The position numbers and the translations under genes were made by a program. A DNA stretch of 51,062 nt from a virus. Below, one piece after another: positions 1-36,739 of this stretch (positions are counted from its first letter, which is position 1; the number at the start of each line of letters is the position of its first letter). The notes beneath the pieces were generated by a model. That model was not told the DNA's origin, did not search any database, and worked only from the letters and a program-made list of their open reading frames with translations. The DNA is taken from positions 1 to 51,062 of IMG/VR virus record IMGVR_UViG_3300015192_000001, one strand, 5' to 3'.

Positions 1-127
1 ATGAGGCACTAGTTCCGTCATTCGATGTGTCTACGGAGAAGTTGCCTGTGGCCGCAGTTTCGTAGATGCCGGGAGTGAGGGTCGTGGCGACCGTTGTGGT
101 GATGGTGTGCGTGTGTCCCGCAAGGCC
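1..127. repeat. Terminal direct repeat identical to 50936..51062. This is a contig-end overlap of a circular or circularly permuted genome (unit 50,935 bp).
   Basis: Read directly: atgaggcactagttccgtcattcgatgtg...gtgtgtcccgcaaggcc occurs at both ends. The repeat lies inside an open reading frame. Confidence 0.95.
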
Positions 128-3089: not shown

Positions 3090-3134
3090 GTTTCTCCAGA
3101 GAAGTAGGGGGGGAACTTTCGCTCCCCCGCCTTA

Positions 3135-4099: not shown

Positions 4100-4555
4100 C
4101 TAGAAGGCGTGGCCGTTCCGAAGGATTTCGTCCATCTTCTCGGATTCCGTCTGAGGCGGGCGAGCGGGATTGTTACGCAGGCCTGAGGACTCCGTGTTGG
4201 GGGCTGAACCAAGCTTCGTCTTCAATGCCTCGATAACGTCCCCCGAAGGGACGCCGTTCGAAGACAGAAGATCGATCACGTCTGCGAGCTCGGGGTTGCC
4301 ACGCTTCAAGCGCTCGACTTGAACTTCCTGCTCGAGCTGTGCCCGTGCGGCACGCTCGCGAGTGAGTTCTTCTTGCGCTGATGGCAGGGGTTCAAGCTCT
4401 CGGACTCGCCTGGCAAGCTCCTGAATGACGTTGTCTTTCTCACCCAGTTTGCGCTGGAGGCCTTTGTATGCCGCACTAGGCTCTGACGAGGTCTGGTCGG
4501 TAGAGTTTCCTGTTTCCGAACCAGTGCCCCCGGCGTTTGTGTCGGGTTCGCTCAT
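4100..4555 (-). CDS. Scaffolding protein candidate, 151 aa
   Basis: Charged coiled-coil segment (ELARRVRELEPLPSAQEELTRERAARAQLEQEVQVERLKR) immediately upstream of the capsid gene. Confidence 0.55.
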   Translation of the reverse strand: MSEPDTNAGGTGSETGNSTDQTSSEPSAAYKGLQRKLGEKDNVIQELARRVRELEPLPSAQEELTRERAARAQLEQEVQVERLKRGNPELADVIDLLSSNGVPSGDVIEALKTKLGSAPNTESSGLRNNPARPPQTESEKMDEILRNGHAF

Positions 4556-9354: not shown

Positions 9355-11892
9355 CTAGTTGCCGTGTGTGACGCCAGTGGTATCTCCTGTGTAGCCACCG
9401 TTATCTGGCGGCGGAGGTTCGGTGTACCCCGGATCGATCATTGGAGGTGGGGCGTCATTCGAACTGAGGTTCAGGTTCATCTCGTTCTGACGCAGTTGAA
9501 GAGTCTTAAAGAGATTGTCGTAGTAGTTGGGAGCCTGAACACCAGGTTGTCCCCCTCCTGCAGCTTCGATTTCTGCAATGCGTGCGTCTAGCGGTGGTAT
9601 TGTTGAAGCTCCACTTGTGAGACTTCCGCCACGTCCAGCCTCCATTGCCTGGAGTGTGGCGAGCTGGGTACCCTCTGGGTCAGATGCGCCCCATTTACTG
9701 TAGGCACCCCAGAGGCCGCCAGCTGCATTTCCGACAAAATTGCCGATTGCATCGCCCCAGGTACCAGCGATTGGCTCAGCAGCGGGCTTCGGTGTGCCTT
9801 GGTCGATGACGCTATCACCGAGGACTCCGCTACGCCCTGCAAGATATGCATCGTCCCAGTGTTTGTTGTCTGGGATCTTTTGTGGATGAGCACTATCAAA
9901 TGCAGCTCGACGTGCTTCATTTTCATTGTCGGCCTTGTTTGCGGCCACGTATCCTGGACTGAAACCAGTTTGTGAACCGTACATACCGAATAGGTTTGCA
10001 CGTGCTTGAAGCACCATGTTGAGACTATCCACACCAGTCTGGCGGAATGTCTCATCGTTGGCTCGGGTGATCTGGCGGATTGGGCCTGAGAGGTCCTCTA
10101 CCTGCTTGGAGAAGTCATCTGCAGATTTGCCTAGCTCGCCCTTCCGGAGCGGGAGTGAGCCAGGTCCAGATCCACCATTGCCGAAGACAGTGACGGTGTC
10201 ATGGAAACCTTCAATGCCCGCACGCTCCAGTGCAGACCGTACTTCATCGGGACTATTGAGAAGCATTTGCTCAACAAGAGAACGCGCCTCGCCCTGAGAT
10301 TTTGGTTGATGGTCTATTGGCAGTTTGCCAAAGAGGAGGTCTATACCACGAACTTCAATGGGGTTACCGGCAGCATCCTTAGTCTTGACTTTCTGGAAGA
10401 GTTCCTGAGTACGGTTATCGACGAAGTCGCGCCACATCAGTCCCTTTGGACTGTTGGTAATGTCCTTGTAATCCTGAGTCATCTTCTGGGATCCAAGTTC
10501 AATCGCAGCTAGGCGGTCCTTCTGTGACATGTACGGGTTGCTGCTGAGAGTCTGGATAAGGAATTTGGCACTCTCACCGTACTTACCCGTGTTCTCGCCG
10601 GTCTGGGGATTGATGTGTTCCTTGTCAATGTTGTTAGCTGTCTGTGTTCCAAGAAGGAACAGTGAACGCGAGAGAGTAGCGTCCTGGGCCACTGCCTTAT
10701 CCAGGTAGTGCCTTGCCCACTGCTGATCGGGATCGATTTCCGAAGCGTGCTCGAGGGCAGAGCGGAAGGTTGTGTTGGCAGCGATGTATTGCTCTGCCAG
10801 ACGTTGGTACTCGGTCCCCGACTTTGACTGGGGAGCGTACTTGTCAATGGCAGCAGCGGCCTTGGTGTGATCAGATTCAGAGTCGGCCACGATGGCCTTC
10901 ATCGAGTCATGGAGACGAGTCACTGAGGATTGAGCGCTACTGGCGCCAGATCTAGCAGCGGCTGCATCCTTCGCCTGGATCTGTCCGACGAGTCCGAGAA
11001 TGCCCTTCTGGGCTGCCGCGTCATTGGTGCCAGCGCGAATACCGAGAAGACGTTGGGCTGCTGTAGCACCGTTAATGTTGCCGGCCTCGTACTCGGCACG
11101 GACGTCGTCTGCTGACTTGAGGATCTCGTTGGACTCAAAGGACTTGAGTTGTCCTCGGAGAGTAGTTGCTTCCCTACTGTCAACCGATCTGCTAATACGA
11201 CTGTTCAGGTAGTCGCGGTATTCCTTCGGAGGTAGTGTGCCTGCGGAATATGCAGCCGACTGCATCTGGTCTCCGACCTTGTTCTCATTGGTCTGAGCTG
11301 ATGCAATGTAGCCGTTGAGTTTGGTGAGGTCTCCCCCATCCTTGGCTCGTTGTGCGGCATAGGTCTGAAACTGATCGAAACCAGAGAGACCGTTCTGGTA
11401 GGAGCCGTACTGTTTGGTGTCTTCGTTGTTACGGGCCATCGACATGAGTTCATTCATGTGCGACAAGTCCCCGCCGTCCTTCTTACGAGAGTCGGCGTAC
11501 TTCTGGAAGTCTGAGAGTGTCATGCCCTCGGACTTGTATGTGTTGAACTGTGTCGTATCCATGTTCCGAACAGCTGTGCGGCCAATCTGGTCGATCGTGC
11601 TGGTGTGGTCAGGGAAGGCTTCCTTCTCCTTAGCCAGGGCGGCATTGAATTCCTTCAATGTGATCGATCGATCGGTAAGCTGTTGAGCAAGGTCAGCGAC
11701 TGTGTTCTGTTCTTTTGCCCAGGTCTCGGCCTTGGCCTGCTTTTCCTGCTCCTGCTTGTAGCGGAGCTGAGACTCGTTGTACCGAGTGTCCTGTTCCTGG
11801 GCCATCTTGTCGGCCTTAAGGTCAGCGACCAGCGTAGATCGGCTTCCCGACATCCCGAGAGCGATAGTCGGCCTGCGGCGGAATGTAGCCAA
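9355..11892 (-). CDS. Large coiled-coil-rich protein, 845 aa, function unknown (portal-adjacent)
   Basis: Uninterrupted ORF directly after the portal gene. Charged helical N-terminus and Pro/Gly-rich C-terminus. Confidence 0.6.
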   Translation of the reverse strand: MATFRRRPTIALGMSGSRSTLVADLKADKMAQEQDTRYNESQLRYKQEQEKQAKAETWAKEQNTVADLAQQLTDRSITLKEFNAALAKEKEAFPDHTSTIDQIGRTAVRNMDTTQFNTYKSEGMTLSDFQKYADSRKKDGGDLSHMNELMSMARNNEDTKQYGSYQNGLSGFDQFQTYAAQRAKDGGDLTKLNGYIASAQTNENKVGDQMQSAAYSAGTLPPKEYRDYLNSRISRSVDSREATTLRGQLKSFESNEILKSADDVRAEYEAGNINGATAAQRLLGIRAGTNDAAAQKGILGLVGQIQAKDAAAARSGASSAQSSVTRLHDSMKAIVADSESDHTKAAAAIDKYAPQSKSGTEYQRLAEQYIAANTTFRSALEHASEIDPDQQWARHYLDKAVAQDATLSRSLFLLGTQTANNIDKEHINPQTGENTGKYGESAKFLIQTLSSNPYMSQKDRLAAIELGSQKMTQDYKDITNSPKGLMWRDFVDNRTQELFQKVKTKDAAGNPIEVRGIDLLFGKLPIDHQPKSQGEARSLVEQMLLNSPDEVRSALERAGIEGFHDTVTVFGNGGSGPGSLPLRKGELGKSADDFSKQVEDLSGPIRQITRANDETFRQTGVDSLNMVLQARANLFGMYGSQTGFSPGYVAANKADNENEARRAAFDSAHPQKIPDNKHWDDAYLAGRSGVLGDSVIDQGTPKPAAEPIAGTWGDAIGNFVGNAAGGLWGAYSKWGASDPEGTQLATLQAMEAGRGGSLTSGASTIPPLDARIAEIEAAGGGQPGVQAPNYYDNLFKTLQLRQNEMNLNLSSNDAPPPMIDPGYTEPPPPDNGGYTGDTTGVTHGN

Positions 11893-11896
11893 CTAC

Positions 11897-13708
11897 TTAT
11901 ACCTCGCTTGGATTCATAAACGGCGGGTGGATCGCGACTGGACTAGTAATTGAGGGACCTACGCCCATGAGTTGGGCGGCGGTATCCCGCATGGGTCCTA
12001 CATGATTTCCTGGCATGGTGTGTTGGTTCTGTCCGGCGTTCCCCGGCATAGCCTTGTCAGAGCCTGCCTGTGCCTGTTGGGCTGCGGCTTGGTTACTGCC
12101 ATTCGCAATGGCATCCATCTGGCCCTGTACGGAAACGATCGCCCCGGCTGTGCCGGGTGAAAGCTTCGGGTCGGCGTTCCACTCACCGATGTAGGTCTCT
12201 TCGTCTTCTGGAACCTTGTTGATCTCTTCCATCGCGCTGCGACGAGAGAGCATGCCTGACGAGATGGCCTGGCTGAGTGAGTTGACTGTGGCGGCGAAGT
12301 CACGAGGAGTAACGGCCGTGAAGTCGATCTTGGTGAAGTAGTTGCCCTGGATGAGTTCCTTGGTGTCTGGCTCAACGATTTCCATGTTCTTGAGCGTCAG
12401 TTCGGCCCAGCGCTGGTAGAGCGTGCCCATGCGAACCTCGCGTGGGCCAAGGCGTGTGACGACAGACTGGAACCGGATGGCCATGGCATACCCGGAGGAA
12501 GTGGTGGGAACACCACCCCCGCCGAGGACCTCAGGCGGAATGCCCGTTGTGCGTCGATACTCGTCGTAGAGATGAGTCAGCAACTCGCCGTATCCGATGT
12601 TGTCCACCGGGTACTTGAGAGGCATGACGTCTTCGTCTTCCTTCGAGCCGAGCGGGAACACCCGGCCACCGCCGGGGAGGTCCCGCGGCGACAGGCCGCG
12701 GACATTGAAGGTCTTCCACTGGTCCTGGCCGTTACGGCGAACCGCTTCGGCCCAGTCGGTGATCCGAGTTGAGATCTCCTTCTGGAACATGACCGTGGGC
12801 TCTGCGTCACCGATACCGAACGGGTTCCCTGGCTCGGTGTCGCAGTTGATCGGGATATACGGGAAGTCCGGTAGCTTGGTGACTTTCTCTTCAACCTGCT
12901 GGCCGTTGCCGAGGAACAGACTGTTGACGACCTTCCCTGCAGTGTTCTTGTAGTGGAAGTCGATTAGTGGAACCCCGACGAACTGCTGACGACCAGACAG
13001 CGTCTTGTTCGGACGTGTGGCTAGTCCGAGGAAGTTCTGGTGGTCGGCGTACTGGGGGGCGTTGCCGTCCTTCTTGCGAAGGGCGTCGTACATCGTGGTA
13101 GCCCCGGTGCCATTCCAGCTGTAGTCATCACGCGCCTGCTCGGGCGAGATGAGAGAGTGGTAGGTATAGGAGCGAACACGCTTGTAACTGTCATCGGCCC
13201 ACTCGGTCCAGAGGTTCTCGATGTTGTCGATGTTCTCGGTCCAGAGCTCAGTTCCGTCGTAGCCAACCTTGAGAGCAGCTCGGCCCTTGAGGGAAAGGAC
13301 CTTAGCCATGTCCAGGTGGACCTCTTTGAGGTTCTGGCGCTGCGATTCATACTTCAGCAGTAGCTCAGTGCGTTCCGCATCGTTGCGGTCCTTCTCGTCA
13401 GCGCTCTTCGGCTCCATCTTGATGATCGGAGCTCGCATGCCCATGAGAGCAGACATGACGTTGACGGTGAACCAGACGAGGGGCACAGGCACATAGGCCT
13501 GCTTCTCACGCTTCTCGCGGAAGAAGTGGTCCCAACCATAGAGTGGGTTGTAGGCTGGGTGGTACTCGCGGTGCAGTTGGTCAACGACCTGCCGATAAGC
13601 AGAGGCATGTGGCCAGGCTCGACGCAAGTGGATCTGCAAACGCTGCAGCGGAGTGTCGAGTTCCGTCTGCGGAATGTTGAATTCAGAGCTCAATAGATGC
13701 TTTCCCAC
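11897..13708 (-). CDS. Portal protein candidate, 603 aa
   Basis: GTG start overlapping the terL 3' end by 19 nt. Size and position are typical of a portal. No motif-level proof. Confidence 0.65.
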   Translation of the reverse strand: MGKHLLSSEFNIPQTELDTPLQRLQIHLRRAWPHASAYRQVVDQLHREYHPAYNPLYGWDHFFREKREKQAYVPVPLVWFTVNVMSALMGMRAPIIKMEPKSADEKDRNDAERTELLLKYESQRQNLKEVHLDMAKVLSLKGRAALKVGYDGTELWTENIDNIENLWTEWADDSYKRVRSYTYHSLISPEQARDDYSWNGTGATTMYDALRKKDGNAPQYADHQNFLGLATRPNKTLSGRQQFVGVPLIDFHYKNTAGKVVNSLFLGNGQQVEEKVTKLPDFPYIPINCDTEPGNPFGIGDAEPTVMFQKEISTRITDWAEAVRRNGQDQWKTFNVRGLSPRDLPGGGRVFPLGSKEDEDVMPLKYPVDNIGYGELLTHLYDEYRRTTGIPPEVLGGGGVPTTSSGYAMAIRFQSVVTRLGPREVRMGTLYQRWAELTLKNMEIVEPDTKELIQGNYFTKIDFTAVTPRDFAATVNSLSQAISSGMLSRRSAMEEINKVPEDEETYIGEWNADPKLSPGTAGAIVSVQGQMDAIANGSNQAAAQQAQAGSDKAMPGNAGQNQHTMPGNHVGPMRDTAAQLMGVGPSITSPVAIHPPFMNPSEV

Positions 13709-24108: not shown

Positions 24109-24530
24109 TGACGGTCCGCAACCTCAACAGCGAGAACGACGAGGTACTCACACTCCCCAACGACCTCAATGGCCTTGAGCGCATCTGCCGCAACTACCAC
24201 GCACGGCAGACAGTCGCCACCTACGAAATGACGCCAATCTTCACACCCGGTGATGGATGGCTCTGCGAATCCTGCGAAATCGAAACGTGGGTCCCCTACG
24301 GAGTCACACACACACATGGCCACAGAGCCATCTCCGTCCCCCCCACCGCCACAACTACTTTTCAGTACAAGTCGCACTCACTCGCGCGCTTCGGAGACAC
24401 CACAGCCTGCATTTCATGCGGCGCTGATGACAGATCCGACCTGTTCGAGTTCAAGCTCGATTGCGACACCCGCGCGGTTCGCATCTACCGATCGACCAAT
24501 GGCTCAGGACTCCGACGGGGTGTGGCGTGA
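24108..24530 (+). CDS. Hypothetical protein, 140 aa, with CxxC pairs
   Basis: TAATG coupling with GGAGGTGAAG as SD. Corresponds to the C-terminal part of track ORF 23778..24530. Confidence 0.65.
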   Translation: MTVRNLNSENDEVLTLPNDLNGLERICRNYHARQTVATYEMTPIFTPGDGWLCESCEIETWVPYGVTHTHGHRAISVPPTATTTFQYKSHSLARFGDTTACISCGADDRSDLFEFKLDCDTRAVRIYRSTNGSGLRRGVA

Positions 24531-24697
24531 TCGGCGCCGTTGACCCCACGGTGCGTGGATCACGGGTTCCGGCCGACTCCACCCCCGCACGGCTGCGCCC
24601 AGAGGGCGCACCGGCCGCAAGCGGCCTGCCGCACGTGGGCCCCGGAGCTCGGTCGGCGTCAGGAGAAGTAAGCAAGAAAGTGGAAGGAAACACTGAA

Positions 24698-26251
24698 ATG
24701 CCGCAAACAATCTCGTTTTGGTCGCGGGATGCCAAATGGTCTGGCCTTAGCAACTTCGCGCCAGTGACCATCGAGCACAACGGCACCATCTACCGCAGCC
24801 TTGAGCACGCCTACCTCGCATCACGCGTGGCAATCGAGCACGCTGCAGACATCGCAGCAGCGCCTACCGCACGCGATGCGAAGATCATGATGCGCGACCT
24901 ACCGCGCAACCCGCAGCCGCCGAACAAGATCACCACCATGAAAACACTGCTGCTCAAGAAATTCGCACTGGAGCCGTACCGCACGCTCCTGCTCAGCACA
25001 GGCGATACATACCTGTCCCACTACGCGCCATGGGACAGCTTCTGGGGCACAGGCAAAGATGGCAAAGGCGAGAACCGCCTCGGCCACATGCTCATGAACG
25101 TCAGGAGCGAGATCAATCCCGAAACAACCAAACCCACCGCATCAACAGATGCCACAACAAGTATTGCACTCGTAGGCTCGCGTGCGTTCGGAAAGGACCC
25201 GGCCCTGCTCAACGGCAAGGCAGCATGGACCCTCCTGACACGCATCTTCACAGGCATCGAGAAGCGGTACAGCCTCGTGAACATCGTCTCAGGTGGCGCC
25301 AACGGCGTCGACAAGATGGGCGTGTTCATGGCCAAGGATCGTGGACACACCACCACCGTCTTCCCAGCCGACTGGGACCGCCTCGGCAAGAGCGCTGGCT
25401 ACGCTCGCAACGTCACCATCGTCGAGAACTCAGACATGGTCGTAGCCATCATGGACCCCGGCTCCAAGGGCACCAGGCACACCGTCCACCTCGCTATGGA
25501 CGCACGGCTGCCCCTGCGGATCTTCAGCGCCATCGATGGCAGCGAGTACAAGTCGTGCCCCTGCGATGACAAGATCACGCACGACCGTATCAAGGCCGAG
25601 CAAACCTACCAGACAGTATCCATCGCAGGCACAGACGTCCTGATGGAAGGCGATGACGCCCGCATCCACCGCTACGACAAGCCGTACATCGATCCCGAGA
25701 CTGGTGACTTCATCGAGCCAGATGACAGCCTGCTCGGCATCGAGGTCGATGGCAACTGCCAGACCTGCGGCCGTGAGATGCCAGAGGGTGAGTGCGGCAA
25801 GTGCGCCACCGAGGTCTACGGCTTCCTCCCGGGGGACAACGCCCCAGTGGAAACGCCACAGGACCACCCAGACGTCACTGGCCACAACTACTTCATCAAG
25901 CCAGCCAAGGTGGAGTGGCAGCCAAACCCGTTCTCACGCGGCACGTTCTACAAGATCGTGAACGGTCACCGCATGTACACCGTAGACCAGGTGACCAAGG
26001 CTCGCTTCACCAAAGAGGACCTTGAGGCACAAACGATCCGCCTCAACGCTATCCCAGCAGGCGCCTTCAGCTTCGATGTCATCGCAAAGAACGCCATCAC
26101 GCGCAAGTTCCCAGTGATGCCGTTCGCACACGCAAGCCCGTTCGCCAAGGCGCAGCGCAACACGATCGTCAATCCGCCGCTTCCCCAGCTCCCGGCCACC
26201 ATGGTCGAGATGAGCAAGAAGATCGCTGACAACGCTCGGCTTTACCGCTAA
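24698..26251 (+). CDS. Three-part fusion protein, 517 aa: NADAR (YbiA-like), SLOG/DUF2493-like, and an unknown C-terminal domain with a zinc ribbon
   Basis: ATG after GGAAGGA. NADAR motifs: LSNFAPVTIEHNGTIYRSLEHAY and FWGTGKDGKGENRLGHMLM. SLOG/DUF2493 motifs: SGGANGVDKMG, FPADWDRLGKSAGYARN and GSKGTRHTV. CTD contains CQTCG...CGKC. Confidence 0.75.
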   Translation: MPQTISFWSRDAKWSGLSNFAPVTIEHNGTIYRSLEHAYLASRVAIEHAADIAAAPTARDAKIMMRDLPRNPQPPNKITTMKTLLLKKFALEPYRTLLLSTGDTYLSHYAPWDSFWGTGKDGKGENRLGHMLMNVRSEINPETTKPTASTDATTSIALVGSRAFGKDPALLNGKAAWTLLTRIFTGIEKRYSLVNIVSGGANGVDKMGVFMAKDRGHTTTVFPADWDRLGKSAGYARNVTIVENSDMVVAIMDPGSKGTRHTVHLAMDARLPLRIFSAIDGSEYKSCPCDDKITHDRIKAEQTYQTVSIAGTDVLMEGDDARIHRYDKPYIDPETGDFIEPDDSLLGIEVDGNCQTCGREMPEGECGKCATEVYGFLPGDNAPVETPQDHPDVTGHNYFIKPAKVEWQPNPFSRGTFYKIVNGHRMYTVDQVTKARFTKEDLEAQTIRLNAIPAGAFSFDVIAKNAITRKFPVMPFAHASPFAKAQRNTIVNPPLPQLPATMVEMSKKIADNARLYR

Positions 26252-27888: not shown

Positions 27889-28155
27889 ATGACCTACGAC
27901 CCACTCACCGCAACAGGTTTCCAAGACTTCGCAACGAAGTACTACCAAGAACAAGACCACAGCTTCTCAAGGTCAGCGTACGACCTGTCACTCGCTAGTC
28001 GGATGTGCTCAGCGGCCGGATGGCACCCCGACGACTGCTATGTCTACGAAGACGACAAGTTCATCACCGTCGTGCAGATCGACAAGCAAGAAGTCCGCAT
28101 GCAGGCCAAAGACGTCCACAAGACACGACTTGACGACTTAGGAGTTGCACCATGA
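27889..28155 (+). CDS. Hypothetical protein, 88 aa
   Basis: ATG after TAGGAGAAC. Compact ORF. Confidence 0.65.
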   Translation: MTYDPLTATGFQDFATKYYQEQDHSFSRSAYDLSLASRMCSAAGWHPDDCYVYEDDKFITVVQIDKQEVRMQAKDVHKTRLDDLGVAP

Positions 28156-28394
28156 CCAGAACCGAGGTCCTGCTCAGGGATCGCAAACACGGCATCGCCT
28201 TCCTCAAGAACGACCAAGGAAAGATCATCCTCGCCTGCGCTTCCTACGGAAAGTCAAAGCTAATCGCTATCCCACTCAGCCAGGCAGAAGGACTAAGTCT
28301 GCTGAGTGCAGCACAGGCCACGTTCGTTCCCCCGCCCCACTACGAAAACTGGCTCGAAACGCTCATTCGGCTCATGAAAGGAGACAGGCAGTGA
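28152..28394 (+). CDS. Hypothetical protein, 80 aa
   Basis: ATGA coupling upstream and GTGA coupling downstream. Confidence 0.65.
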   Translation: MTRTEVLLRDRKHGIAFLKNDQGKIILACASYGKSKLIAIPLSQAEGLSLLSAAQATFVPPPHYENWLETLIRLMKGDRQ

Positions 28395-29491
28395 CACAAC
28401 TCGGCACCGATCCGGAGTTCTTCATCTTCGACAAGGATGACAAGCCGGTCCCCGCACACACCCTCGGATTCCCAACCAAAGAAAACAAGCTCAAATCAGA
28501 AGACATCGTTGGCGTCTTCGAGCAATACGCCACTCTCTTCCGAGACGGCTACGCGATCGAAGCCAACGTCACATACGCACCATCCTGCCGAGCCATGCTG
28601 GCAACACACATCCGATCAGCCGTACGCGCCATGCGTGCCAAGGTCGGACCGAACTATCACATCGGCACAGAAGCCGCCGTTCGCATCCGGCTTCGTACCC
28701 AGATGCGTGGAGCACCAGACGATGTCTCACACTTCGGATGCGAGCCATCATTCGACGGCTATCGCAATGGTGCAGCCAAGGTAGTCGACATCGACGCCTT
28801 CACCCACAGCTATCGCTATGCCGGAGGACACATGCACTTCGGCACTTTCAACAACAAGTCAGCACTCTACCGTCAAGCCGCAAAAGACGACAACTCCGAA
28901 GCATTGCAAGACCCGACCAACTTCCCACTCATGGCCAAGATCTTCGACCTACTCGTCGGACTGCCTCTCACCATCATCTATGACGACAGCAAGCAGTTTC
29001 TCCGTCGTCGTCACTACGGTCAGGCTGGCGAGTACCGACCACAGATCTACCCAGGCGAACGAGTGGGCTTCGAGTACCGCACACCCCCCCCGCAGCTATG
29101 GAACCACCACGCCATCGCCGGACTGTTCTTTGGCGTAGGCAAGTGGATCGTGAACAACTACGCCACCCTAGCCGAAGACTGGAACCCCAACATCGAGCAG
29201 GATCTGCAGCGTGCCATCAACCATGGCACCCGCGGACAGAACCTCCTGCAGAGCGTTCCAGGGTTCTATACCCCAGAGACAATCCTGTCTCTCAAGGGTG
29301 TCAAGGAAATCAAATCGCTCTTCCTTCCGGACTACACCGGCAGCACCGATTCGGGATGGATCGAGTTCGCCGAGCTCTGGGGCCTAAAGAAGACCATCCC
29401 GGAGCCCAACTTCAAGCGAAGCTACACCTCAGCACCATACGCACCCACCGCACGTCCCAAGTTCAGCTTCATTGCGGCCAAAGCCGCATGA
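28391..29491 (+). CDS. Carboxylate-amine (COOH-NH2) ligase, 366 aa, phage phiEco32-like type 2, in the GCS/GS-like superfamily
   Basis: GTG start (GTGA overlap, GGAGACAGG as SD). Motifs: LGTDPEFFIF, FGCEPSFDG, AGGHMHFG, GQAGEYRPQ and GFEYRTPP. The first about 80 aa of the track ORF overlap two other genes. Confidence 0.7.
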   Translation: MTQLGTDPEFFIFDKDDKPVPAHTLGFPTKENKLKSEDIVGVFEQYATLFRDGYAIEANVTYAPSCRAMLATHIRSAVRAMRAKVGPNYHIGTEAAVRIRLRTQMRGAPDDVSHFGCEPSFDGYRNGAAKVVDIDAFTHSYRYAGGHMHFGTFNNKSALYRQAAKDDNSEALQDPTNFPLMAKIFDLLVGLPLTIIYDDSKQFLRRRHYGQAGEYRPQIYPGERVGFEYRTPPPQLWNHHAIAGLFFGVGKWIVNNYATLAEDWNPNIEQDLQRAINHGTRGQNLLQSVPGFYTPETILSLKGVKEIKSLFLPDYTGSTDSGWIEFAELWGLKKTIPEPNFKRSYTSAPYAPTARPKFSFIAAKAA

Positions 29492-29659: not shown

Positions 29660-30130
29660 ATGGGTGTCATTCACAACCAGGGAATCGGACAAGCACTGGC
29701 ACAGTCAGCACCAGCTGGCTACTACATCGTGCCAGAATTCCAAGACAACAAAGCAACAGATCGATACTTCTTGAGAACCAAGAAGAACGGCGACAACTGG
29801 GCCACCTTCAAGGCAGAGACGCTACCAGGATGCTGCGGCGTCGCAGTTCTGTCACACGTCAACGTGTACTACTACGAAAAAGCTGCCGAGATCGCCAGAC
29901 GCAACAAGGTCATCGTCGATATGTTCGTTACTGCTGCTAAGAAGCGCGGTTACGGACTCGCGATGGCAACCCAGAAGGCCACGTCAGCGGCGCTCCCAGC
30001 GTACGACGCATGGGAACACGGACAGCCATTCAACAACGGCAAAACGGACAACGACGTTTTGCTTCTAAAGCTCGATCTCAAGCAGCCCAAGAGAACACCT
30101 GTCAAATACATCGAAACAGGCGGCGAGTAG
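29660..30130 (+). CDS. Hypothetical protein, 156 aa, CC-motif family, with a Pup-type C-terminus ...KYIETGGE
   Basis: ATG after GAGAGGAAAAG. C-terminal codons read directly: cct gtc aaa tac atc gaa aca ggc ggc gag tag. Confidence 0.65.
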   Translation: MGVIHNQGIGQALAQSAPAGYYIVPEFQDNKATDRYFLRTKKNGDNWATFKAETLPGCCGVAVLSHVNVYYYEKAAEIARRNKVIVDMFVTAAKKRGYGLAMATQKATSAALPAYDAWEHGQPFNNGKTDNDVLLLKLDLKQPKRTPVKYIETGGE

Positions 30131-30557: not shown

Positions 30558-32225
30558 ATGGCTCTGCATTTCGAGCACCAACCTCCCACCATCATGACCC
30601 TCAAAAAGCCCAAAAAGACCAGCAAAAAGCGTACTTGGGCCATTCCGATCATGTTCGGCAGCACACCCATGCTGCGTCGCTGTCCCAACTGCGACAGAAC
30701 CAGATCCACCACCCACGTCGTCGGATTCTGCGCTGAATGCGAAAGCTGCGTTGCCTGCGGCGCTGCGCCATGGATAGATCGCGACACACGACTCTGCGCC
30801 AACTGCGTATGCCAAACATGTGGCGGCACTAATGCGCCCATGGGTCGTGATGAGGATGGCGACACTGCATGCGGCACCTGTCGCAAGGTCGTCATCTGCA
30901 CGATCTGCTCACGCAACTTTGCTAACTGCCTGAGGAAAGGCGAACAAACACCAACCCAGTGCTACGAGTGCGCCGGACGATCCAAGATGCGCTGCTACTT
31001 CTGCAACGGCAAAGCCAGCAAGATCATGGGAAACGATTCACGAGCCAACCGCAAGTACTACCTCGTCTGCGCCATCTGTCACAACACCTTCTGCTGCTGG
31101 CGCAAAGACTGCATCCCAACCAAACAGTGCGGCGGATGCACCGACAGGCAGCACGAGCAAGAGCAAGCAGACACCAATCCCACACCTCGTTGGAACAACC
31201 CGTTCGGCAACTGGGTCAACAATCCGATCAAGTTCTGGGATGCCACACCAATCACTAGCCGCAAGATCAATCGATCACCCCGAATGCTCGGCATCGAAAT
31301 CGAATGCGCAGGCGCCACAAACGTCACACTCAAAACCAAAGCAGAACTGTACCGAGTGCTCAAAAAGTGGGGCGCCAGCATGGTGTACGACGGCTCACTG
31401 CGCAGCGGCGGATTCGAGATCACCACATCCCCCGCTGCAGGCGACGTCTTCCTCAAGCAGATCGACGAGATCACCGACGCCCTGCGAGCCGCAGGCGCAT
31501 TTGTCGACGAGCAATGCGGTCTCCACGTACACATCGACGCACGAGACCACCACTACGCCGACATCCGCAAGCTCGTGCGCTACTACGCCTTCCTCGAGCC
31601 AGCACTCATCCGTACCCAGCCATTCGATCGCATCCTTCGCCCCAACCCGAACAACGGCAAGTACTACTGCCTACCATGCGGAGAGAAGTACCTAACAGGC
31701 CTCGGTGACACAAGCGCTGAGACCGTCTCCAAGATGTACACCGACATCACTCGAGAGAAACTTCTGAGCAACATCTATGGCACAGACACATGGCGCCCAC
31801 CCAGGAGGGAGCACTACACCCAGGCCAAGTACCACGCATTCAACTTCCACTCATGGTTCTACAAGAACCGACGCACAGTCGAATCCAGGATACACGCAGG
31901 CACAATCGTCCCCAGAAAGATCAAAGACTGGGGCATGCTCTGGGCCAGCATCGTCGATGAGGCCTACCGGATGACAGACAAGGTCATCCCGGTCCCCGGA
32001 CCAGTCGACGACAGCATCGCGCAGCTCAAGCGCGTAGCACCAACCCCACGTATCAAGACCTACATCCAGACACGACTGGATACCTTCCGCAAGAAGTACG
32101 ACGACTACTACGCCACGCAACCTGCAACTTCCATACCCAACAACCCATTCTTCGAAGAAACATTCGAAGCAGAAATTCAAGACCCACCTGAAGACCACGA
32201 CAACTACGAAGAAGAGGACTTTTAA
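30558..32225 (+). CDS. Amidoligase_2-family (GS-like) ligase, 555 aa, with a long N-terminal multi-CxxC zinc-ribbon array
   Basis: ATG after GAAGGAG. 26 Cys, including 11 CxxC pairs, in residues 42-194. Ligase motifs: MLGIEIECAG, YDGSLRSGGFEITTSP, CGLHVHIDA. Acidic tail ...EDHDNYEEEDF. Confidence 0.7.
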   Translation: MALHFEHQPPTIMTLKKPKKTSKKRTWAIPIMFGSTPMLRRCPNCDRTRSTTHVVGFCAECESCVACGAAPWIDRDTRLCANCVCQTCGGTNAPMGRDEDGDTACGTCRKVVICTICSRNFANCLRKGEQTPTQCYECAGRSKMRCYFCNGKASKIMGNDSRANRKYYLVCAICHNTFCCWRKDCIPTKQCGGCTDRQHEQEQADTNPTPRWNNPFGNWVNNPIKFWDATPITSRKINRSPRMLGIEIECAGATNVTLKTKAELYRVLKKWGASMVYDGSLRSGGFEITTSPAAGDVFLKQIDEITDALRAAGAFVDEQCGLHVHIDARDHHYADIRKLVRYYAFLEPALIRTQPFDRILRPNPNNGKYYCLPCGEKYLTGLGDTSAETVSKMYTDITREKLLSNIYGTDTWRPPRREHYTQAKYHAFNFHSWFYKNRRTVESRIHAGTIVPRKIKDWGMLWASIVDEAYRMTDKVIPVPGPVDDSIAQLKRVAPTPRIKTYIQTRLDTFRKKYDDYYATQPATSIPNNPFFEETFEAEIQDPPEDHDNYEEEDF

Positions 32226-32227
32226 AC

Positions 32228-33535
32228 ATGTGCGGACAATTCGGCGTGCAATGGCGAGAGCGACCAGGCGGAGCCAACATCCCGCTCTTCGCCGTACTTG
32301 AGGTCCTCATGGACGACCGCGGTGGTCACTCATGGGGATTCTGGGCCGACGGGGTAGTCCGCAAGGGACTGGGCCGCATCACAGAATCGATCCCAGCCAG
32401 AACATTGGGCGGAGTCAAAACACTCATCGCCCACACCCGCCTCGCCACCACAGGCAAGATCTGCGAGAGCAACTCCCACCCTTTTGAGATGGGAAAGATC
32501 GTCGGCACACACAACGGAATGATCTACAACCACGAGGATCTCGCACGGCACTACGACCGCAAGTTCGAAGTCGATTCCATGCACATCTTCGCCCATCTTG
32601 ACGAAGGCCAAGACCTTCAGGAGCTGCGAGGCTATGGTTCAGCAGTCTGGCTACACACCGACGACCTGAACACCATCAACTTCGTACGCTGGAACAGCGG
32701 AGACCTAGCCATCGCCGAGATCTACAGCAAAGACAAGAAGCTGCTGGGCACTGCATGGGCCTCAACTCCAGAAGCACTCGTCCCAGCCATCGAAACCACA
32801 GGACTCGTCGATCGCCTCATCAAGGTCGATGAAGAGCGCCATTACTACACCAAAAACGCCGAAGTCTTCGCAGAGAACGAAAAGAGCATGAAGTTCGGCT
32901 TCGGTTCAAAGGGCGCATCCACCTTCAGCTCTCACGCAGACAAGATCGGTGGCGAATGGGTCAAAAACGTCTGGACTGCCTATGAAAATGGAGTCCTGCC
33001 AGCCCCCAAGCCGGTGCAGATCTACTCGGGCTTCAGACACAAGCAGAAGCCAACACCCATCGAAGTCCGAGACACACTCGCAAAGCAGGGCCTCAAAGCG
33101 ATCCAGCGGCCGGGTGGCGTCACCATCAAGAACAAATCCCAGTTCGAAGAATGGCCCAAAGACACCCTCACACAAAGTCGCAAGTGCATGAACTGCGATC
33201 TTGCCAACATGAAGACAGTCCGGCACCCCGAGATCGGCGTAGCGCTCTGCTACGACTGCACCAAAGTCACCGATTCCTACGATGACGCTGGACTCCCAAT
33301 CATCGTGCCCAACACCACAGAACACGGCATCGCCCTAGTCGCCAACCTACAAGATGTCGTCACCCTCCAAGATGCCATCAAATACGAAGGCATCGACGAA
33401 GACACACTAGACCCAGACGAAGTCGCCCTACTGGAGTGGATGCGCGAAGGACGCCGTCCCGAAAGCGGCACGCTCTACATCCCAAACAACGAAGAGATCG
33501 AGTTCCCACCCCGAGATTGGGTCGGCATGATCTAG
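32228..33535 (+). CDS. Class II (Ntn-type) glutamine amidotransferase-like protein, 435 aa, with a C-terminal zinc ribbon
   Basis: Met-Cys start (MCGQFG). Motifs: IAHTRLATTG, NSHPF, GTHNGMIYNHEDL. C-terminus contains CMNCD...CYDC. Confidence 0.7.
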   Translation: MCGQFGVQWRERPGGANIPLFAVLEVLMDDRGGHSWGFWADGVVRKGLGRITESIPARTLGGVKTLIAHTRLATTGKICESNSHPFEMGKIVGTHNGMIYNHEDLARHYDRKFEVDSMHIFAHLDEGQDLQELRGYGSAVWLHTDDLNTINFVRWNSGDLAIAEIYSKDKKLLGTAWASTPEALVPAIETTGLVDRLIKVDEERHYYTKNAEVFAENEKSMKFGFGSKGASTFSSHADKIGGEWVKNVWTAYENGVLPAPKPVQIYSGFRHKQKPTPIEVRDTLAKQGLKAIQRPGGVTIKNKSQFEEWPKDTLTQSRKCMNCDLANMKTVRHPEIGVALCYDCTKVTDSYDDAGLPIIVPNTTEHGIALVANLQDVVTLQDAIKYEGIDEDTLDPDEVALLEWMREGRRPESGTLYIPNNEEIEFPPRDWVGMI

Positions 33536-33772
33536 ATGTATCAGATCATTGAGATCCGCATCGCCGTTGACGGAACTGAAGACCGTATCCGAGACCGGAT
33601 TCAGAACAAAGGACAAGAGATCACCCGAAGCCTAGAGACCAATCTCGTAGGCCACGGATTCATTCCACTGCGTCTCATGGGCGCCAACAGCATCATCCCC
33701 AGAATCCGTATCAAGAGTACACACCAAGAACCAGAGCAACTCAGCATCGGACTGAGAGGAGACGAACCATGA
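33536..33772 (+). CDS. Hypothetical protein, 78 aa
   Basis: TAGATG junction upstream and ATGA downstream. Confidence 0.6.
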   Translation: MYQIIEIRIAVDGTEDRIRDRIQNKGQEITRSLETNLVGHGFIPLRLMGANSIIPRIRIKSTHQEPEQLSIGLRGDEP

Positions 33773-34227
33773 GATGCGACAAACGCGTCGGCAGCCTCCG
33801 TTGTCCACAAACAGCAATGGCCGGATTCGTACGGTGCTCGGCACACGTCGCACAGTACCAAAACGAAGGCAGCAACATCGAAGCCCTGCGTGCCACACCA
33901 ACACAAGCCGCAACCCTAGCAACCAACACCTGGACCATGAACCCAACAATGCACTTCGACACCACACAAGCCTTCCATGACATGGATGCAGCCACTGCCG
34001 CTGTAATAGCTGGCTTGGGCCTCCCACCCACCGAAGCACCAGCCAAGAAGGAAGTCACCAAGGTCGTCGACCCAGAGTGTCTGGCACGAGTCATCGCACA
34101 GCTCGATATGCCGAAAGACGACAAGCTCAAGCTCGCCATGGAATTCGCAGAAGCCCTCGTCGAAATGAAGCCAATCAAGTTCAACCGAGACAGCTTCATC
34201 CAACACATCCAGGAGAAGATCGCATGA
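33769..34227 (+). CDS. Hypothetical protein, 152 aa, with a Cys/His-rich N-terminus
   Basis: ATGA coupling at both ends. N-terminus is MRCDKRVGSLRCPQTAMAGFVRCSAH. Confidence 0.6.
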   Translation: MRCDKRVGSLRCPQTAMAGFVRCSAHVAQYQNEGSNIEALRATPTQAATLATNTWTMNPTMHFDTTQAFHDMDAATAAVIAGLGLPPTEAPAKKEVTKVVDPECLARVIAQLDMPKDDKLKLAMEFAEALVEMKPIKFNRDSFIQHIQEKIA

Positions 34228-34337
34228 ACGAGCTCACCGCAGAAGACATCGAACTGCTAGATGGCATCGACCCCGACGATGACGACGACGCCATCTTTCT
34301 CGAACAGTTCTACCTCAAGGGAGGCACCGGAGAGTGA
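34224..34337 (+). CDS. Pup-like small acidic peptide, 37 aa, ending KGGTGE
   Basis: ATG at 34224 after AGGAGAAG, with ATGA overlap. Codons read directly give MNELTAEDIELLDGIDPDDDDDAIFLEQFYLKGGTGE*. Its stop overlaps the next GTG (GTGA). Confidence 0.6.
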   Translation: MNELTAEDIELLDGIDPDDDDDAIFLEQFYLKGGTGE

Positions 34338-35086
34338 AGACGCTCGTCAAGCGGCGGGTGCTCGTCGCCGTAGCCAAGGTAGCGGCGACTCGCCCCGCGG
34401 TTGAGATCCAGCCATATGACGGACCGGCCGCCAACTACATCCAGTTGACGGGCGTCCCCCTCACCATGGCCATTCTCAACGATGAGTACAAGGAGCTCAT
34501 GTCGCCAGTCATGTGCAAGGACTACATCACCGATGCCTTCTGGTCCGAACACAGCAAGAAGCCAATTTCCATCTACGGCTTCAACTGGACATCGGGAACA
34601 ATAGACCCCAGCAAGGTCGTCTATCGCATCGGACTCAAGTTCGGCAACGACGACGATGCCCAAAAGACAACCAACGTCATCGACCTCATCAACCTTTGGG
34701 ACAAAGCACTTGGCTTCAAACCAAGCCAGCTCCTAAAGACCAACGACATCAAGAACCGTGTCCTTGAAGTCGATCGCGCATGGACCGAGCAGCCAATCCG
34801 CATCAGCCTTCTCACCCTCATGCTTCGCATGGGCACCGCCTACACCCCCGGAGAGGGGCTCGAGGCATTCCTCAACAACACCAAGACCAACATAAACACC
34901 GGGAAGAAAGGCCTACGCGCACTCATCCACAGTGGTGACGGCATGCATGTCGCCCAGGCCCAGAACCTCATCCTGAAGATCTACAAGGAGGGAAAGTTCC
35001 CCGCGCAGACCTACGCACAATACAAAAGCCACAGCGAAATCCACAACCGAAGCGGCATCGTCTCAATGGCAGGGAGCAGTAAGTGA
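34334..35086 (+). CDS. Hypothetical protein, 250 aa, lying between the Pup-like peptide gene and the ATP-grasp gene
   Basis: GTG start. Its SD AAGGGAGG is encoded by the KGG codons of the upstream peptide. No motif recognised. Confidence 0.65.
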   Translation: MKTLVKRRVLVAVAKVAATRPAVEIQPYDGPAANYIQLTGVPLTMAILNDEYKELMSPVMCKDYITDAFWSEHSKKPISIYGFNWTSGTIDPSKVVYRIGLKFGNDDDAQKTTNVIDLINLWDKALGFKPSQLLKTNDIKNRVLEVDRAWTEQPIRISLLTLMLRMGTAYTPGEGLEAFLNNTKTNINTGKKGLRALIHSGDGMHVAQAQNLILKIYKEGKFPAQTYAQYKSHSEIHNRSGIVSMAGSSK

Positions 35087-35838
35087 TCGACCTCGTCGTA
35101 GCCTCAGCAGCCAAGACCACCGGACGCTACCTCAGAACAGCCCTCTCTACACTCAATGTAGGGGTCGGTGCAAGCACCAAGCGTGTGAGCTACGGCGTAC
35201 CGCTGCATGTTCCTCATGGCTCCTCGGCCCTCAACGCCAACGCAGGTCGGCTCGACAAGTTCGAGCAGATGAAGAAGCTTAACTCTGCGGGAATCACCGT
35301 GCCCCTGTTCTGGCTTCCAGGACAGACGCCGTCTAAGTTCCCGCTTCTCGCGAGAAAGAGGCATCACAAGGGAGGTACCGACATCATGCCCGTCTTCATG
35401 GCAGAGGAGATGTCATGGCGCGTCCTCGCAGGTGCTGAATTCTTCGTGGAGTACATCCCGTGGCAGGCGGAGTATCGCACATGGATATTCCGCTCAGCTC
35501 ACCTGGGGACCGATCGCAAAGTCCTGACGAACCCGAGTCAGTACAAGAAGATCGGATGCAACGCAAAGAACGGGTTCACGTTCCAGACCGTCCACCAAGA
35601 CGATGTCCCAAGGGCAGCCGTCGAAGCCGCCATGAGGTCAATCCACACACTTGACCTTGACTTCGGCGCAGTAGACATTCTTCTTGGCAAGGACAGTCGA
35701 TACTACGTGCTTGAGGTAAACACGGCCCCCGGGGTCGAGAGCGCAGAGCGCAGGCTACTCCGCTCCCTCGCACAGAAGATCGCCAACTGGAACGCCAACC
35801 CGGTCGAACGTCGCAAAACCTACACACCGACCATCTAA
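35083..35838 (+). CDS. ATP-grasp (RimK-like) amide ligase, 251 aa
   Basis: Motifs: DKFEQMKKLNSAGITVP, RKRHHKGGTD, EYRTWIF and LDLDFGAVDILLGKDSRYYVLEVNTAPG. Confidence 0.7.
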   Translation: MIDLVVASAAKTTGRYLRTALSTLNVGVGASTKRVSYGVPLHVPHGSSALNANAGRLDKFEQMKKLNSAGITVPLFWLPGQTPSKFPLLARKRHHKGGTDIMPVFMAEEMSWRVLAGAEFFVEYIPWQAEYRTWIFRSAHLGTDRKVLTNPSQYKKIGCNAKNGFTFQTVHQDDVPRAAVEAAMRSIHTLDLDFGAVDILLGKDSRYYVLEVNTAPGVESAERRLLRSLAQKIANWNANPVERRKTYTPTI

Positions 35839-35902
35839 ATCATGCTACCACACAAGCATAGTCATGATATCATTCGGAGCAGACTCGATAAGGAGAATGC
35901 TC

Positions 35903-36355
35903 ATGCCAAAGGTTCTGAAGATCTCCTTGCTGGAACAAATCTTGGGCAAGACTCAAACAGAGGAACTGTTGAAGAAAGCTGGGAGTCTGACGGAGACGGC
36001 TGGGAGAACTATTACGGCGGATACGGTCCAGGCTACCAAGCGGTATCTCGAGTGGCTTGCAACCCACGGCCAAAAGCCAGCTTCGTATACGCCGAAGCAA
36101 AGAAGACAGGACCGGATCGCATGGCAGAGAGTAGCGGAGCGGATGCTAATGTCCAACGCCCCGGCTCAACGCCTTATGGCTACGTACCTGAAAGCGGGGA
36201 CGACGACAGCGAATACTGACGTCGCCATACCGTGCCCTAAATGCGGTGTGCCACAACTCGTCCACGGCCTCGACATCCATCTCAGCAGGACGCACGGCAT
36301 AAGAGGCCCGCATTACGGCAAGGGTAAAAAGAGCAGTGGAGCCCAATCACGCTAG
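35903..36355 (+). CDS. Hypothetical protein, 150 aa, with a C-terminal C2H2-like zinc finger
   Basis: ATG 7 nt after AAGGAG. Finger sequence is CPKCGVPQLVHGLDIHLSRTH. The stop lies within TAGCTAGCTAA, which stops all three frames. Confidence 0.55.
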   Translation: MPKVLKISLLEQILGKTQTEELLKKAGSLTETAGRTITADTVQATKRYLEWLATHGQKPASYTPKQRRQDRIAWQRVAERMLMSNAPAQRLMATYLKAGTTTANTDVAIPCPKCGVPQLVHGLDIHLSRTHGIRGPHYGKGKKSSGAQSR

Positions 36356-36504
36356 CTAGCTAAAGTACTAACCCGGCGATATAGCCATACCTGAACCGCA
36401 GCGTCGCTGCACTGAAGGTTTGTTGCTTGCCGTAACGCACTTCAGTATGGAATAGCGGCCGGGCTTGGCTGGGAGGCGATCTCCCCAGCACACAGCTCAG
36501 TCTC

Positions 36505-36577
36505 ACGGGGCAATCGTTCAGCGGCAGGACCCTGGGTTGTGAACCCGGCAAGGCAGGTCCAACTCCTGCGTGCCCCT
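36505..36577 (+). promoter_or_regulatory. Structured 5' leader candidate: nested helices with a GNRA-capped hairpin, ending 5 nt before an SD
   Basis: Outer helix ACGGGGCA/TGCCCCT. Inner helix GGACC/GGTCC. Hairpin CTGGGTT-GTGA-AACCCGG. Then cagAAAGGActtccaATG. Confidence 0.35.
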
Positions 36578-36592
36578 CAGAAAGGACTTCCA

Positions 36593-36739
36593 ATGTCTTA
36601 CCTCACCGGTCTTTCCGATCGCCTAATGGACATCGCCTACCACACCAAGAACCAGTACGAAAGCGAGACAATCCAAGAGGCAGCAGAAGCAATCAAGAAA
36701 CTCGACCCAATAAAGCCAAAGGGCTTCCACAAACAGTGA
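36593..36739 (+). CDS. Small protein, 48 aa
   Basis: ATG after AAAGGA. The track ORF 36539..36739 has an unlikely upstream extension. Confidence 0.5.
   Translation: MSYLTGLSDRLMDIAYHTKNQYESETIQEAAEAIKKLDPIKPKGFHKQ

Follow-up and report, generated by a model that had tools for sequence, protein, structure and literature searches.

A micro-gene within a phage amidoligase cluster encodes a peptide with a conserved glycine-rich C-terminal tail: a possible ligase partner, not a demonstrable Pup

Introduction

Is the short open reading frame (ORF) lodged among the ligase genes of this phage a viral Pup, or a gene of another kind? The question arises in a 51,062-nucleotide stretch of viral DNA (IMG/VR record IMGVR_UViG_3300015192_000001, positions 1 to 51,062), referred to below as the window, which carries at 34224..34337 on the + strand a micro-gene for a peptide of 37 amino acids (aa). 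A first-pass annotation, made from the sequence without database searches, had described this peptide as Pup-like and offered two readings, a pupylation-like chemistry run by the phage or a truncated decoy directed against the PafA, Dop or Mpa of the host. In Pup, a bihelical unit is followed by a short extended C-terminal tail with a conserved G-[EQ] end, normally GG[EQ], and the Amidoligase_2 family was first described alongside the placement of PafA in the carboxylate-amine ligase superfamily (PMC2588565). The window encodes an amidoligase cluster of the phiEco32 type; for such clusters a modification of the cell wall or of metabolites has been proposed (Iyer et al., 2009, as cited in PMC10580990). 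The literature merely repeats these 2009 proposals on the function of the cluster, namely cell-wall modification, secondary metabolites and “auxiliary metabolism.”

Here we report that the ORF is a genuine gene and that the part of its product under selection is an amphipathic helix followed by a Gly-rich C-terminal tail, the Pup-like part not being so. We tentatively propose that the peptide is a cluster-specific micro-protein whose tail would be presented to a neighboring ligase.

Results

A genuine gene coupled to both of its neighbors

The locus comprises the following elements.

34224..34337, + strand: 37-aa micro-gene MNELTAEDIELLDGIDPDDDDDAIFLEQFYLKGGTGE, supported by its sequence, its codon usage, a syntenic homologue on contig L007 and an AlphaFold2 (AF2) model
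34211..34215, + strand: AGGAG Shine-Dalgarno site, 8 nucleotides (nt) before the ATG of the micro-gene and within the 3' end of the upstream 152-aa gene
34317..34324, + strand: AAGGGAGG, the K-G-G codons of the micro-gene, which double as the Shine-Dalgarno site of the downstream 250-aa gene, 9 nt ahead of its GTG

The ORF and its ATGA and GTGA overlaps are present in the sequence as the first-pass annotation had them: the ATG (34224-34226) shares nucleotides with the TGA (34225-34227) that ends the upstream 152-aa ORF, and the TGA of the peptide (34335-34337) with the GTG (34334-34336) that starts the downstream 250-aa ORF. As had likewise been noted, the ORF listing has no separate entry for the peptide, which shows there only at the end of 34077..34337. 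The dual role assigned to the KGG codons also holds in the window; the L007 contig described below keeps only AAGGA at the equivalent position. The 250-aa protein read from this GTG begins with MKTLVKR..., which resembles the MPKTALRK... of a 44%-identical relative, P0003, and thus supports GTG 34334 as its start.

The coding status of the micro-gene was assessed with a codon-usage log-odds score trained on 24 long ORFs of the window. The 37 codons of 34224-34334 scored +26.1, to be compared with 13.0±7.1 for in-frame and -18.3±8.0 for off-frame 37-codon windows taken from the genes of the window; none of 10,000 off-frame windows attained this value, which exceeds those of 98.9% of the true in-frame windows. 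Just upstream, over 34077-34223, the frame of the micro-gene scored -25.1 and that of the 152-aa gene +27.1, so that the frame of coding changes precisely at 34224. This switch at the ATG, together with a homologue that occupies the same slot with the same coupling in L007, establishes 34224..34337 as a genuine gene. A chance ORF in a 106-nt spacer, which the very short length and the lack of a database family might suggest, is extremely improbable in view of the codon score, the frame switch, the conserved homologous ORF with the same junctions and the Shine-Dalgarno site. We also considered, and rejected, a fusion of the 152-aa gene to the frame of the peptide by -1 frameshifting: no slippery heptamer was seen on reading the overlap, and the fusion is contradicted by the off-frame codon score of -25.1 and by the ATGA restart conserved in L007.

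The encoded peptide is highly acidic (13 D+E for 1 K+R, net charge about -12). The single-sequence AF2 model (pLDDT, the predicted local distance difference test, 74.5) consists of a helix at residues 6-13, an acidic loop, a second helix at 20-32 and a five-residue tail at 33-37 that is predicted to be unstructured.

A homologue in a soil contig and the conserved tail

A search for the peptide in relatives of the phage succeeded in part: it yielded one homologue, in L007, and no other syntenic phage with the peptide was found. L007 (Ga0070704_100344833) is a soil metagenome contig of 1255 bp that was found by scanning metagenome contigs with the alignment of the 250-aa protein. It is colinear with the window from about 33.3 to 34.6 kb and contains, in order:

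24..380: C-terminal end of a class-II glutamine amidotransferase (GATase), conserved with respect to that of the window
377..601: 74-aa homologue of the 78-aa gene of the window
591..896: 101-aa homologue of the 152-aa gene
893..1033: 46-aa ORF MIELAPPPARCPRCGTTNKTPVLCMWCRDDDAQHLRDLYTKDGTGG, homologue of the 37-aa peptide
directly after the 46-aa ORF: homologue of the 250-aa gene, 51% identity

The 46-aa ORF has ATGA overlaps at both ends and sits in the same slot as the micro-gene, although the proteins encoded on either side of it share only about 30-50% identity with those of the window. The two peptides align with a Smith-Waterman score of 49, compared with 18.9±3.6 for shuffled sequences, and none of 20,000 shuffles attains 49. 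The similarity is concentrated in the C-terminal half of the window peptide.

34278..34334, + strand: conserved part, residues 19-37, DDDDAIFLEQFYLKGGTGE, aligned without gaps to RDDDAQHLRDLYTKDGTGG of L007 with 10/19 identical residues

The motif common to both peptides is DDDA..L...Y.K.GTG[E/G]-COOH, and their ends read ...KGGTGE in the window and ...KDGTGG in L007. All three codons of the tail residues G, T and G differ between the two contigs, in each case synonymously. The KGG itself is not conserved, being KDG in L007, and neither is the N-terminal helix with its LT-E and LLD-ID elements, in place of which L007 has a CPRCG-x9-CxxC zinc ribbon that gives weak zinc-ribbon profile matches only. 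The amphipathic helix and the Gly-rich tail are thus the part of the peptide under selection.

These data bear on the view that the peptide has no functional tie to the ligases and is an unrelated small phage protein of the early or middle class, for example a factor for host takeover or an acidic mimic, whose gene happens to lie in the operon. Phage operons are rich in small orphan genes, extreme acidity is frequent in phage inhibitor proteins, and homologues of the peptide were detected in one contig only. We nevertheless judge this view unlikely: the same slot and the same two-sided coupling are found in a relative with flanking proteins as divergent as those of L007, the trio formed by the 78-aa gene, the 152-aa gene and the peptide sits precisely between the GATase and the 250-aa gene in both contigs, and the acidity is not conserved.

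Is the peptide related to Pup?

Profile searches and the L007 homologue both contradict the Pup-like identity that had been given to the peptide. In Pfam and NCBIfam, no model was matched by the peptide at E<=10, whereas Mtb Pup, used as a control, matched TIGR03687 at 4e-21 in NCBIfam. The same threshold applies to UBact, for which the peptide matched no Pfam or NCBIfam model, the presence of a UBact model in these collections being unconfirmed; the TGE ending may be UBact-like, as the first-pass annotation had suggested. BLASTP against Mtb Pup gave no alignment with the peptide, phmmer against the PDB gave noise only and no Pup, and no Pup was among the phmmer matches of the peptide in 1.84 billion representative proteins.

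We also retrieved 120 Pups, 99 of which served to build a hidden Markov model (HMM). Against this Pup HMM, run with all filters off, the peptide scored 3.6 bits and ranked 307/5000 among composition-matched shuffles; without the null2 correction it scored 7.2 bits and ranked 86/4996. The comparison of the two-member peptide family with 32 Pups in hhalign returned a probability of 0.3%.

The by-eye alignment to Pup fared better in its shape than in its statistics. HMMER and Smith-Waterman both recover it as the best alignment, colinear, with 13 identities in 33 columns and ending at KGG in both sequences, but it is not statistically robust. The Smith-Waterman score of the peptide against Mtb Pup was 44, compared with 27.6±5.2 for shuffles (p 0.008, or 0.003 when Pup was shuffled), which as a sequence signal is weakly above chance, for a comparison picked after the fact. 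When the peptide was split, the N-terminal 18 residues of the window gave p 0.03 and the C-terminal 19-mer conserved in the family p 0.25; the L007 peptide gave p 0.10 with an alignment that was not colinear.

The features said to be shared with Pup (LT-E, LLD-ID, KGG and a terminal Glu) are all missing in L007, the sole homologue. Among the retrieved Pups, 113/120 end in GGQ or GGE; the window peptide also ends in G-E but as GGTGE, and the L007 peptide ends in GTGG. The Pup-type bihelical unit with a short C-terminal tail is found in the AF2 model of the window peptide, although this fold is generic and constitutes weak evidence, and helix 1 is missing from the L007 homologue. The N-terminal helix, moreover, matches an unrelated protein, P0004, better than it matches Pup, which indicates that ELxxExxxLLDxID is a common acidic amphipathic helix.

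P0004 is a 343-aa repeat protein whose repeat, NELKAEQVQLLDGIDPSW, looks helicase-associated-type and matches the N-terminal helix of the peptide (NELTAEDIELLDGIDP, residues 2-17, 34227..34271) five times. Five repeats, each contributing about 15 bits, add up to its E-value of 3.7e-17. We rejected kinship with P0004, judging the match a short-helix coincidence, since the E-value is a sum over repeats.

Descent from Pup or UBact, with the peptide serving either as a phage pupylation tag, ligated at the Glu37 gamma-carboxylate, or as a truncated decoy to block the PafA, Dop or Mpa of the host, can be weighed on these results. It would account for the colinear best local alignment to Mtb Pup, for the predicted bihelical unit and short G-E tail, which fit the description of Pup in PMC2588565, and for neighboring ligases that belong to the superfamily of PafA, a point on which Pfam matches and PMC2588565 bear out the first-pass annotation. 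Peptide and Pup are both small and acidic; in each, a helix-loop-helix is predicted ahead of a short tail that contains Gly and ends in Glu, and both are encoded beside carboxylate-amine ligases that have a glutamine synthetase (GS) fold. Set against this are the profile, HMM and hhalign results, the origin of the signal in the N-terminal helix, a tail reading GGTGE instead of GG[EQ], the missing disordered N-terminal segment of Pup, and a homologue that ends in GG and has a zinc ribbon for helix 1. Pfam and PHROG gave no matches to PafA, Dop (Pup_ligase), Mpa/ARC or the proteasome among the proteins of the operon. The context is that of a phage, the identifiable relatives of the cluster infect Proteobacteria, and neither the relatives of the ATP-grasp protein nor the DnaB matches gave any sign of a Pup-bearing host. 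We therefore find descent from Pup very improbable. A host-Pup decoy in particular is unlikely, because it needs a Pup-bearing host, and the identifiable relatives of the ATP-grasp protein lie in phages of Proteobacteria. We conclude that membership of the Pup family cannot be demonstrated for the peptide, whose likeness lies mostly in the non-conserved helix plus the G-E end, and that the peptide should not be annotated as Pup. The literature searched makes no mention of a phage Pup, in keeping with the earlier remark that none was known to be described.

The amidoligase cluster around the micro-gene

A phage amidoligase cluster of the phiEco32 type occupies the + strand from about 28.1 to 35.8 kb, as indicated by Pfam and PHROG matches to all four enzymes. 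It comprises, besides the micro-gene:

28145..29491, + strand: phiEco32-type COOH-NH2 ligase type 2, with the fold of GS and glutamylcysteine synthetase (GS/GCS) (PF14395, 3.1e-12; phrog_3815, 5e-19); these are the limits of the maximal ORF and the true start is probably further downstream
29660..30130, + strand: 156-aa protein of no known family, ending in ...KYIETGGE (codon score +67.6)
30558..32225, + strand: Amidoligase_2 (GS fold) whose N-terminal region, about 230 aa long, is Cys-rich (PF12224, 1.2e-21; phrog_2443)
32228..33535, + strand: class-II GATase-like protein (Ntn, N-terminal MCG) with a C-terminal CxxC..CxxC (GATase_6, 4e-10; phrog_4736)
33536..33772, + strand: 78-aa lineage-specific protein (homologue in L007, E 3e-6)
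33769..34227, + strand: 152-aa protein whose N-terminus carries a C..C..CxxH motif and whose gene is translationally coupled to that of the peptide (homologue in L007)
34334..35086, + strand: 250-aa protein, a conserved partner of phage amidoligase clusters, whose start overlaps the stop of the peptide
35083..35838, + strand: ATP-grasp protein of the RimK / MvdCD / LysX assemblage (Pfam RimK, 2e-5; phrog_2599 “S6 glutaminyl transferase,” 4e-22)

No homologues were found for the 156-aa protein. Homologues of the 250-aa protein are P0003 (44% identity), the protein of L007 (51%) and those of two Manatee Spring podoviruses, L001 and L002 (about 25%), in which the distant homologues lie directly after the GATase or the ATP-grasp gene. 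The 250-aa family was seen only in amidoligase-type clusters. Its AF2 model was poor (pLDDT 51), and Foldseek of this model against the PDB gave nothing below E 0.1.

The same set of COOH-NH2 ligase type 2, Amidoligase_2, class-II GATase and ATP-grasp protein is present in L001, L002 and L004, and the 250-aa partner is common to the window, L001 and L002. The lineage of the window, a rare form of the cluster from soil phages, differs from these by the insertion of the 78-aa, 152-aa and 37-aa genes between the GATase and the 250-aa gene, and its Amidoligase_2 carries the added Cys-rich N-terminal region. The cluster is thus of a known kind, whereas the micro-gene has no family and no described counterpart in the searchable literature, where we found no ribosomal peptide partner described for a cluster of the phiEco32 type.

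The ATP-grasp protein has Ddl and RimK as its nearest PDB entries. Its matches in NCBIfam, all below the cut-offs, were to the maturases MvdD, MvdC and SAV_5884 (2e-5 to 5e-5; 22-24 bits for cut-offs of 350-475, covering the generic ATP-binding segment only) and to rimK_fam (about 1e-5); the RimK family scored 22 bits for a cut-off of 143 and the LysX model 11 bits (E 0.16) for a cut-off of 276. With the maturases as the top NCBIfam matches, the peptide could be the precursor of a graspetide, a ribosomally synthesized and post-translationally modified peptide (RiPP) of the microviridin type, in which the helix would serve as leader or recognition element and the ATP-grasp enzyme would form a macrolactone or lactam in the tail, between Thr or Lys and Glu or Asp. 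A small ribosomal peptide does lie near the ATP-grasp gene, and each tail (KGGTGE and KDGTGG) holds one Lys, one Thr and one acidic residue. The acidic residue of the tail, however, stands at different positions in the two homologues, so that no ring pattern is conserved, known graspetides do not resemble a core of six residues in which only one ring is possible, the maturase scores are far below their cut-offs, and profile searches of the operon proteins detected no protease and no exporter or other transporter. We consider a graspetide precursor very unlikely.

Rarity of the peptide, the phage and its host

The peptide is rare. It was unmatched in PHROGs; a word-indexed search of 5.8 billion proteins returned the peptide itself only, and a full phmmer search of the 1.84 billion representatives returned the peptide itself plus P0004 only. 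Against 50,697 phage genomes, tblastn of the peptide found nothing, and megablast of 30000-38000 found no close relative. Searches of viral and genome contig collections with the 250-aa protein or its alignment gave no match, and DNA patterns of the C-terminal motif gave none or chance matches only in the same collections; in the viral contig collection, neither the ATP-grasp protein nor the alignment and DNA pattern of the 78-aa protein had a match. Looking up contigs for P0001 and P0002 by exact sequence gave no entry.

One candidate from these scans was set aside. In L011, a viral contig of 99.6 kb, a 33-aa acidic ORF at 3095..3196 (MNNTDAIYEWLHPWEEQIEWEEWIEYLKYGTGE) ends in EYLKYGTGE and so shares YLK.GTGE with the window peptide. 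It lies among unrelated genes, including a NAD-synthetase-like one, with no ligase cluster in the 4.2 kb covered, and was taken as a chance pattern match.

The window is a phage genome, encoding a terminase, a tail protein, a DnaB-type helicase, a primase and an integrase. The matches of its DnaB are generic, falling in phages of many phyla with identities of about 35%, and the unannotated 603-aa ORF at 11897..13708 had no phage match. The identifiable relatives of the ATP-grasp protein are all in phages of Proteobacteria.

Other features of the window

Several features outside the micro-gene were recorded.

24461..26251, + strand: 596-aa protein with NADAR (PF08719, 3e-18) and SLOG-type domains (YAcAr, DNA_processg_A-like, LDcluster4)
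35842..36219 and 35864..36355, + strand: overlapping ORFs of 125 and 163 aa in different frames, after the ATP-grasp gene
36507..36578, + strand: tRNA-His (GTG), just downstream of the ATP-grasp gene and of these two overlapping small ORFs

The 596-aa gene is upstream of the amidoligase genes in the same + strand block, and its domain combination suggests, from sequence, a processing of NAD, ADP-ribose or nucleotides. The codon scores of the 125-aa and 163-aa ORFs are near zero (+10.8 and +3.6). Genes are on the - strand at 1-22.4 kb and 39.4-51 kb and on the + strand at 23.7-39 kb; the coding strand is richer in C than in G and in A than in T throughout, and the GC and AT skews change sign at the switches of gene orientation, at about 22.4-23.7 kb and about 39 kb.

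Discussion

The reading that we favor, if tentatively, is that the peptide is a cluster-specific micro-protein, made on the ribosome as a substrate, scaffold or carrier, whose tail is presented to an adjacent ATP-dependent ligase. The micro-protein would dock through its helix and a variable N-terminal module (an acidic helix in the window, a zinc ribbon in L007), and its tail would insert into the active site of a carboxylate-amine ligase, the candidates being the RimK/MvdCD/LysX-class ATP-grasp enzyme encoded two genes downstream and the two GS-fold amidoligases. The terminal carboxylate could then be activated as an acyl-phosphate and joined to an amine, for which an amino acid, ammonia from the class-II amidotransferase or a lysine are candidates. 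As the last residue is Glu in the window and Gly in L007, the alpha-carboxylate is more likely to be the common reactive group than the gamma-carboxylate of Glu.

Several observations suggest that the tail inserts into an enzyme. The strongest selection falls on the Gly-rich tail, which is unstructured and comes after a helix; the micro-gene is coupled at both ends to genes of the cluster; its surroundings encode three ATP-dependent carboxylate-amine ligases as well as an amidotransferase that generates ammonia; and the nearest, if weak, relatives of the ATP-grasp protein are ribosomal-peptide maturases and RimK C-terminal glutamate ligases. A functional tie to the cluster is further suggested by this two-sided coupling, which both contigs show, and by the restriction of the 250-aa family to such clusters.

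Several observations weigh against such a role. The terminal residue is not conserved, nor is the strong acidity (D+E and K+R counts of 13 and 1 in the window peptide, 6 and 6 in that of L007), and the conservation around K-G-G may partly reflect the overlapping Shine-Dalgarno site. The family has two members only, those of the window and of L007, in the collections searched. The canonical clusters of L001, L002, L004 and L005 are without an equivalent peptide, which implies that the ligases do not generally need one, and in L003, another relative of the 250-aa gene, there is no such ORF directly upstream but a 170-nt gap.

Part of this evidence would suit a non-covalent accessory subunit or adaptor equally, one that bridges or regulates the enzymes of the cluster, for instance by nucleating a complex through the helix and the N-terminal module, and whose C-terminus is never modified. 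The swap of the N-terminal module between an acidic helix and a zinc ribbon is what could be expected of an interaction module, Cys-rich or zinc-ribbon segments occur in many other proteins of the cluster, the terminal residue varies and canonical clusters lack the peptide. Yet the best-conserved stretch is the extreme C-terminal G-T-G tail, kept through synonymous changes, and a tail predicted to be unstructured is unusual for pure docking and typical of threading into an active site. On balance an adaptor is a possible explanation, though a somewhat unlikely one.

The tail-presenting role resembles known systems in its chemical logic, as in S6/RimK, LysW/LysX and Pup/PafA, rather than in ancestry. 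RimK, which acts on ribosomal protein S6, and the TTL/TTLL enzymes of tubulin are instructive here, as these ATP-grasp ligases extend a protein at its C-terminal alpha-carboxylate and the ATP-grasp protein of the window matches RimK. The substrate would again be a protein made on the ribosome whose acidic C-terminus is exposed, and an alpha-carboxylate chemistry would suit the E and the G termini alike. The RimK match is nonetheless far below its cut-off, the peptide is not S6-like, and the cluster of the window has two further ligases and an amidotransferase.

LysW, an amino-group carrier protein, combines an N-terminal zinc ribbon with a conserved acidic tail that ends in Glu and an EDWGE motif, and works with LysZ, LysY, LysJ and LysK as partners. 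Like it, the window peptide is a tiny protein with a flexible C-terminal G-E tail as a possible covalent carrier arm, encoded close to an ATP-grasp of the RimK/LysX class, and in the L007 homologue a CPxCG...CxxC zinc ribbon precedes an acidic stretch that leads into the tail. Neither peptide matched a LysW model in Pfam or NCBIfam, however, and neither has the EDWGE motif; the zinc ribbon is in L007 and not in the window peptide, while the terminal Glu is in the window peptide and not in L007. Profile searches of the operon detected no homologues of the kinase, reductase, aminotransferase or deacylase (LysZ, LysY, LysJ and LysK).

Two side observations concern cysteines and zinc ribbons. The order of zinc ribbon, acidic stretch and Gly tail in the L007 peptide recalls LysW, and other Cys-rich or zinc-ribbon-like segments of the window are found at the N-terminus of Amidoligase_2, the C-terminus of the GATase and the N-terminus of the 152-aa protein.

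Other tails in amidoligase clusters may be mentioned in their own right; they fit a tail-presenting role without proving it. In a six-frame scan of the 51-kb window for stop-terminated segments of at least 25 aa, only two have GG[EQ] or G[TSA]G[EGQ] as their last residues: the 37-aa peptide and the 156-aa protein of the operon at 29660..30130 (...ETGGE), whose GGE end is that of mature Pup. Rhizobium phage RHph_N3_19 (L006; MN988527.1) has a distantly related cluster with amidoligase, ATP-grasp and GATase and, interspersed among these genes, encodes five small proteins of 78-121 aa (691..927, 4128..4493, 6513..6767, 7564..7821 and 9525..9788) that all share the tail ...Q.GDTEEDI. Two of them abut the ATP-grasp gene with overlapping start and stop codons. 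Proteins with the GDTEEDI tail have no Pfam family, and tblastn placed them, at 5-7 copies per genome, in only three related Rhizobium phages. They may represent another set of cluster-encoded proteins with a common C-terminal handle.

A stronger form of the tail-presenting role would make it the phage's own Pup-like conjugation or carrier system, arisen by convergence, in which a GS-fold or ATP-grasp ligase of the cluster activates the tail and the peptide is then either attached covalently to lysines of proteins, as a viral tag, or serves as a covalent scaffold for a product assembled by the three ligases and the amidotransferase. We regard this form as unlikely; if true, it would provide the first candidate ribosomal substrate for the long-unexplained phiEco32-type clusters.

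Clusters of this type are widespread in phages and have been known since 2009, while their substrate and product remain guesses. A micro-protein with a selected Gly-rich tail is a concrete and testable candidate substrate for these phage enzymes. If the tail is not ligated, the gene would be one more orphan phage micro-gene; if it is ligated, the phage would possess a virus-encoded peptide-tagging or carrier system following the logic of Pup/PafA, LysW/LysX and S6/RimK.

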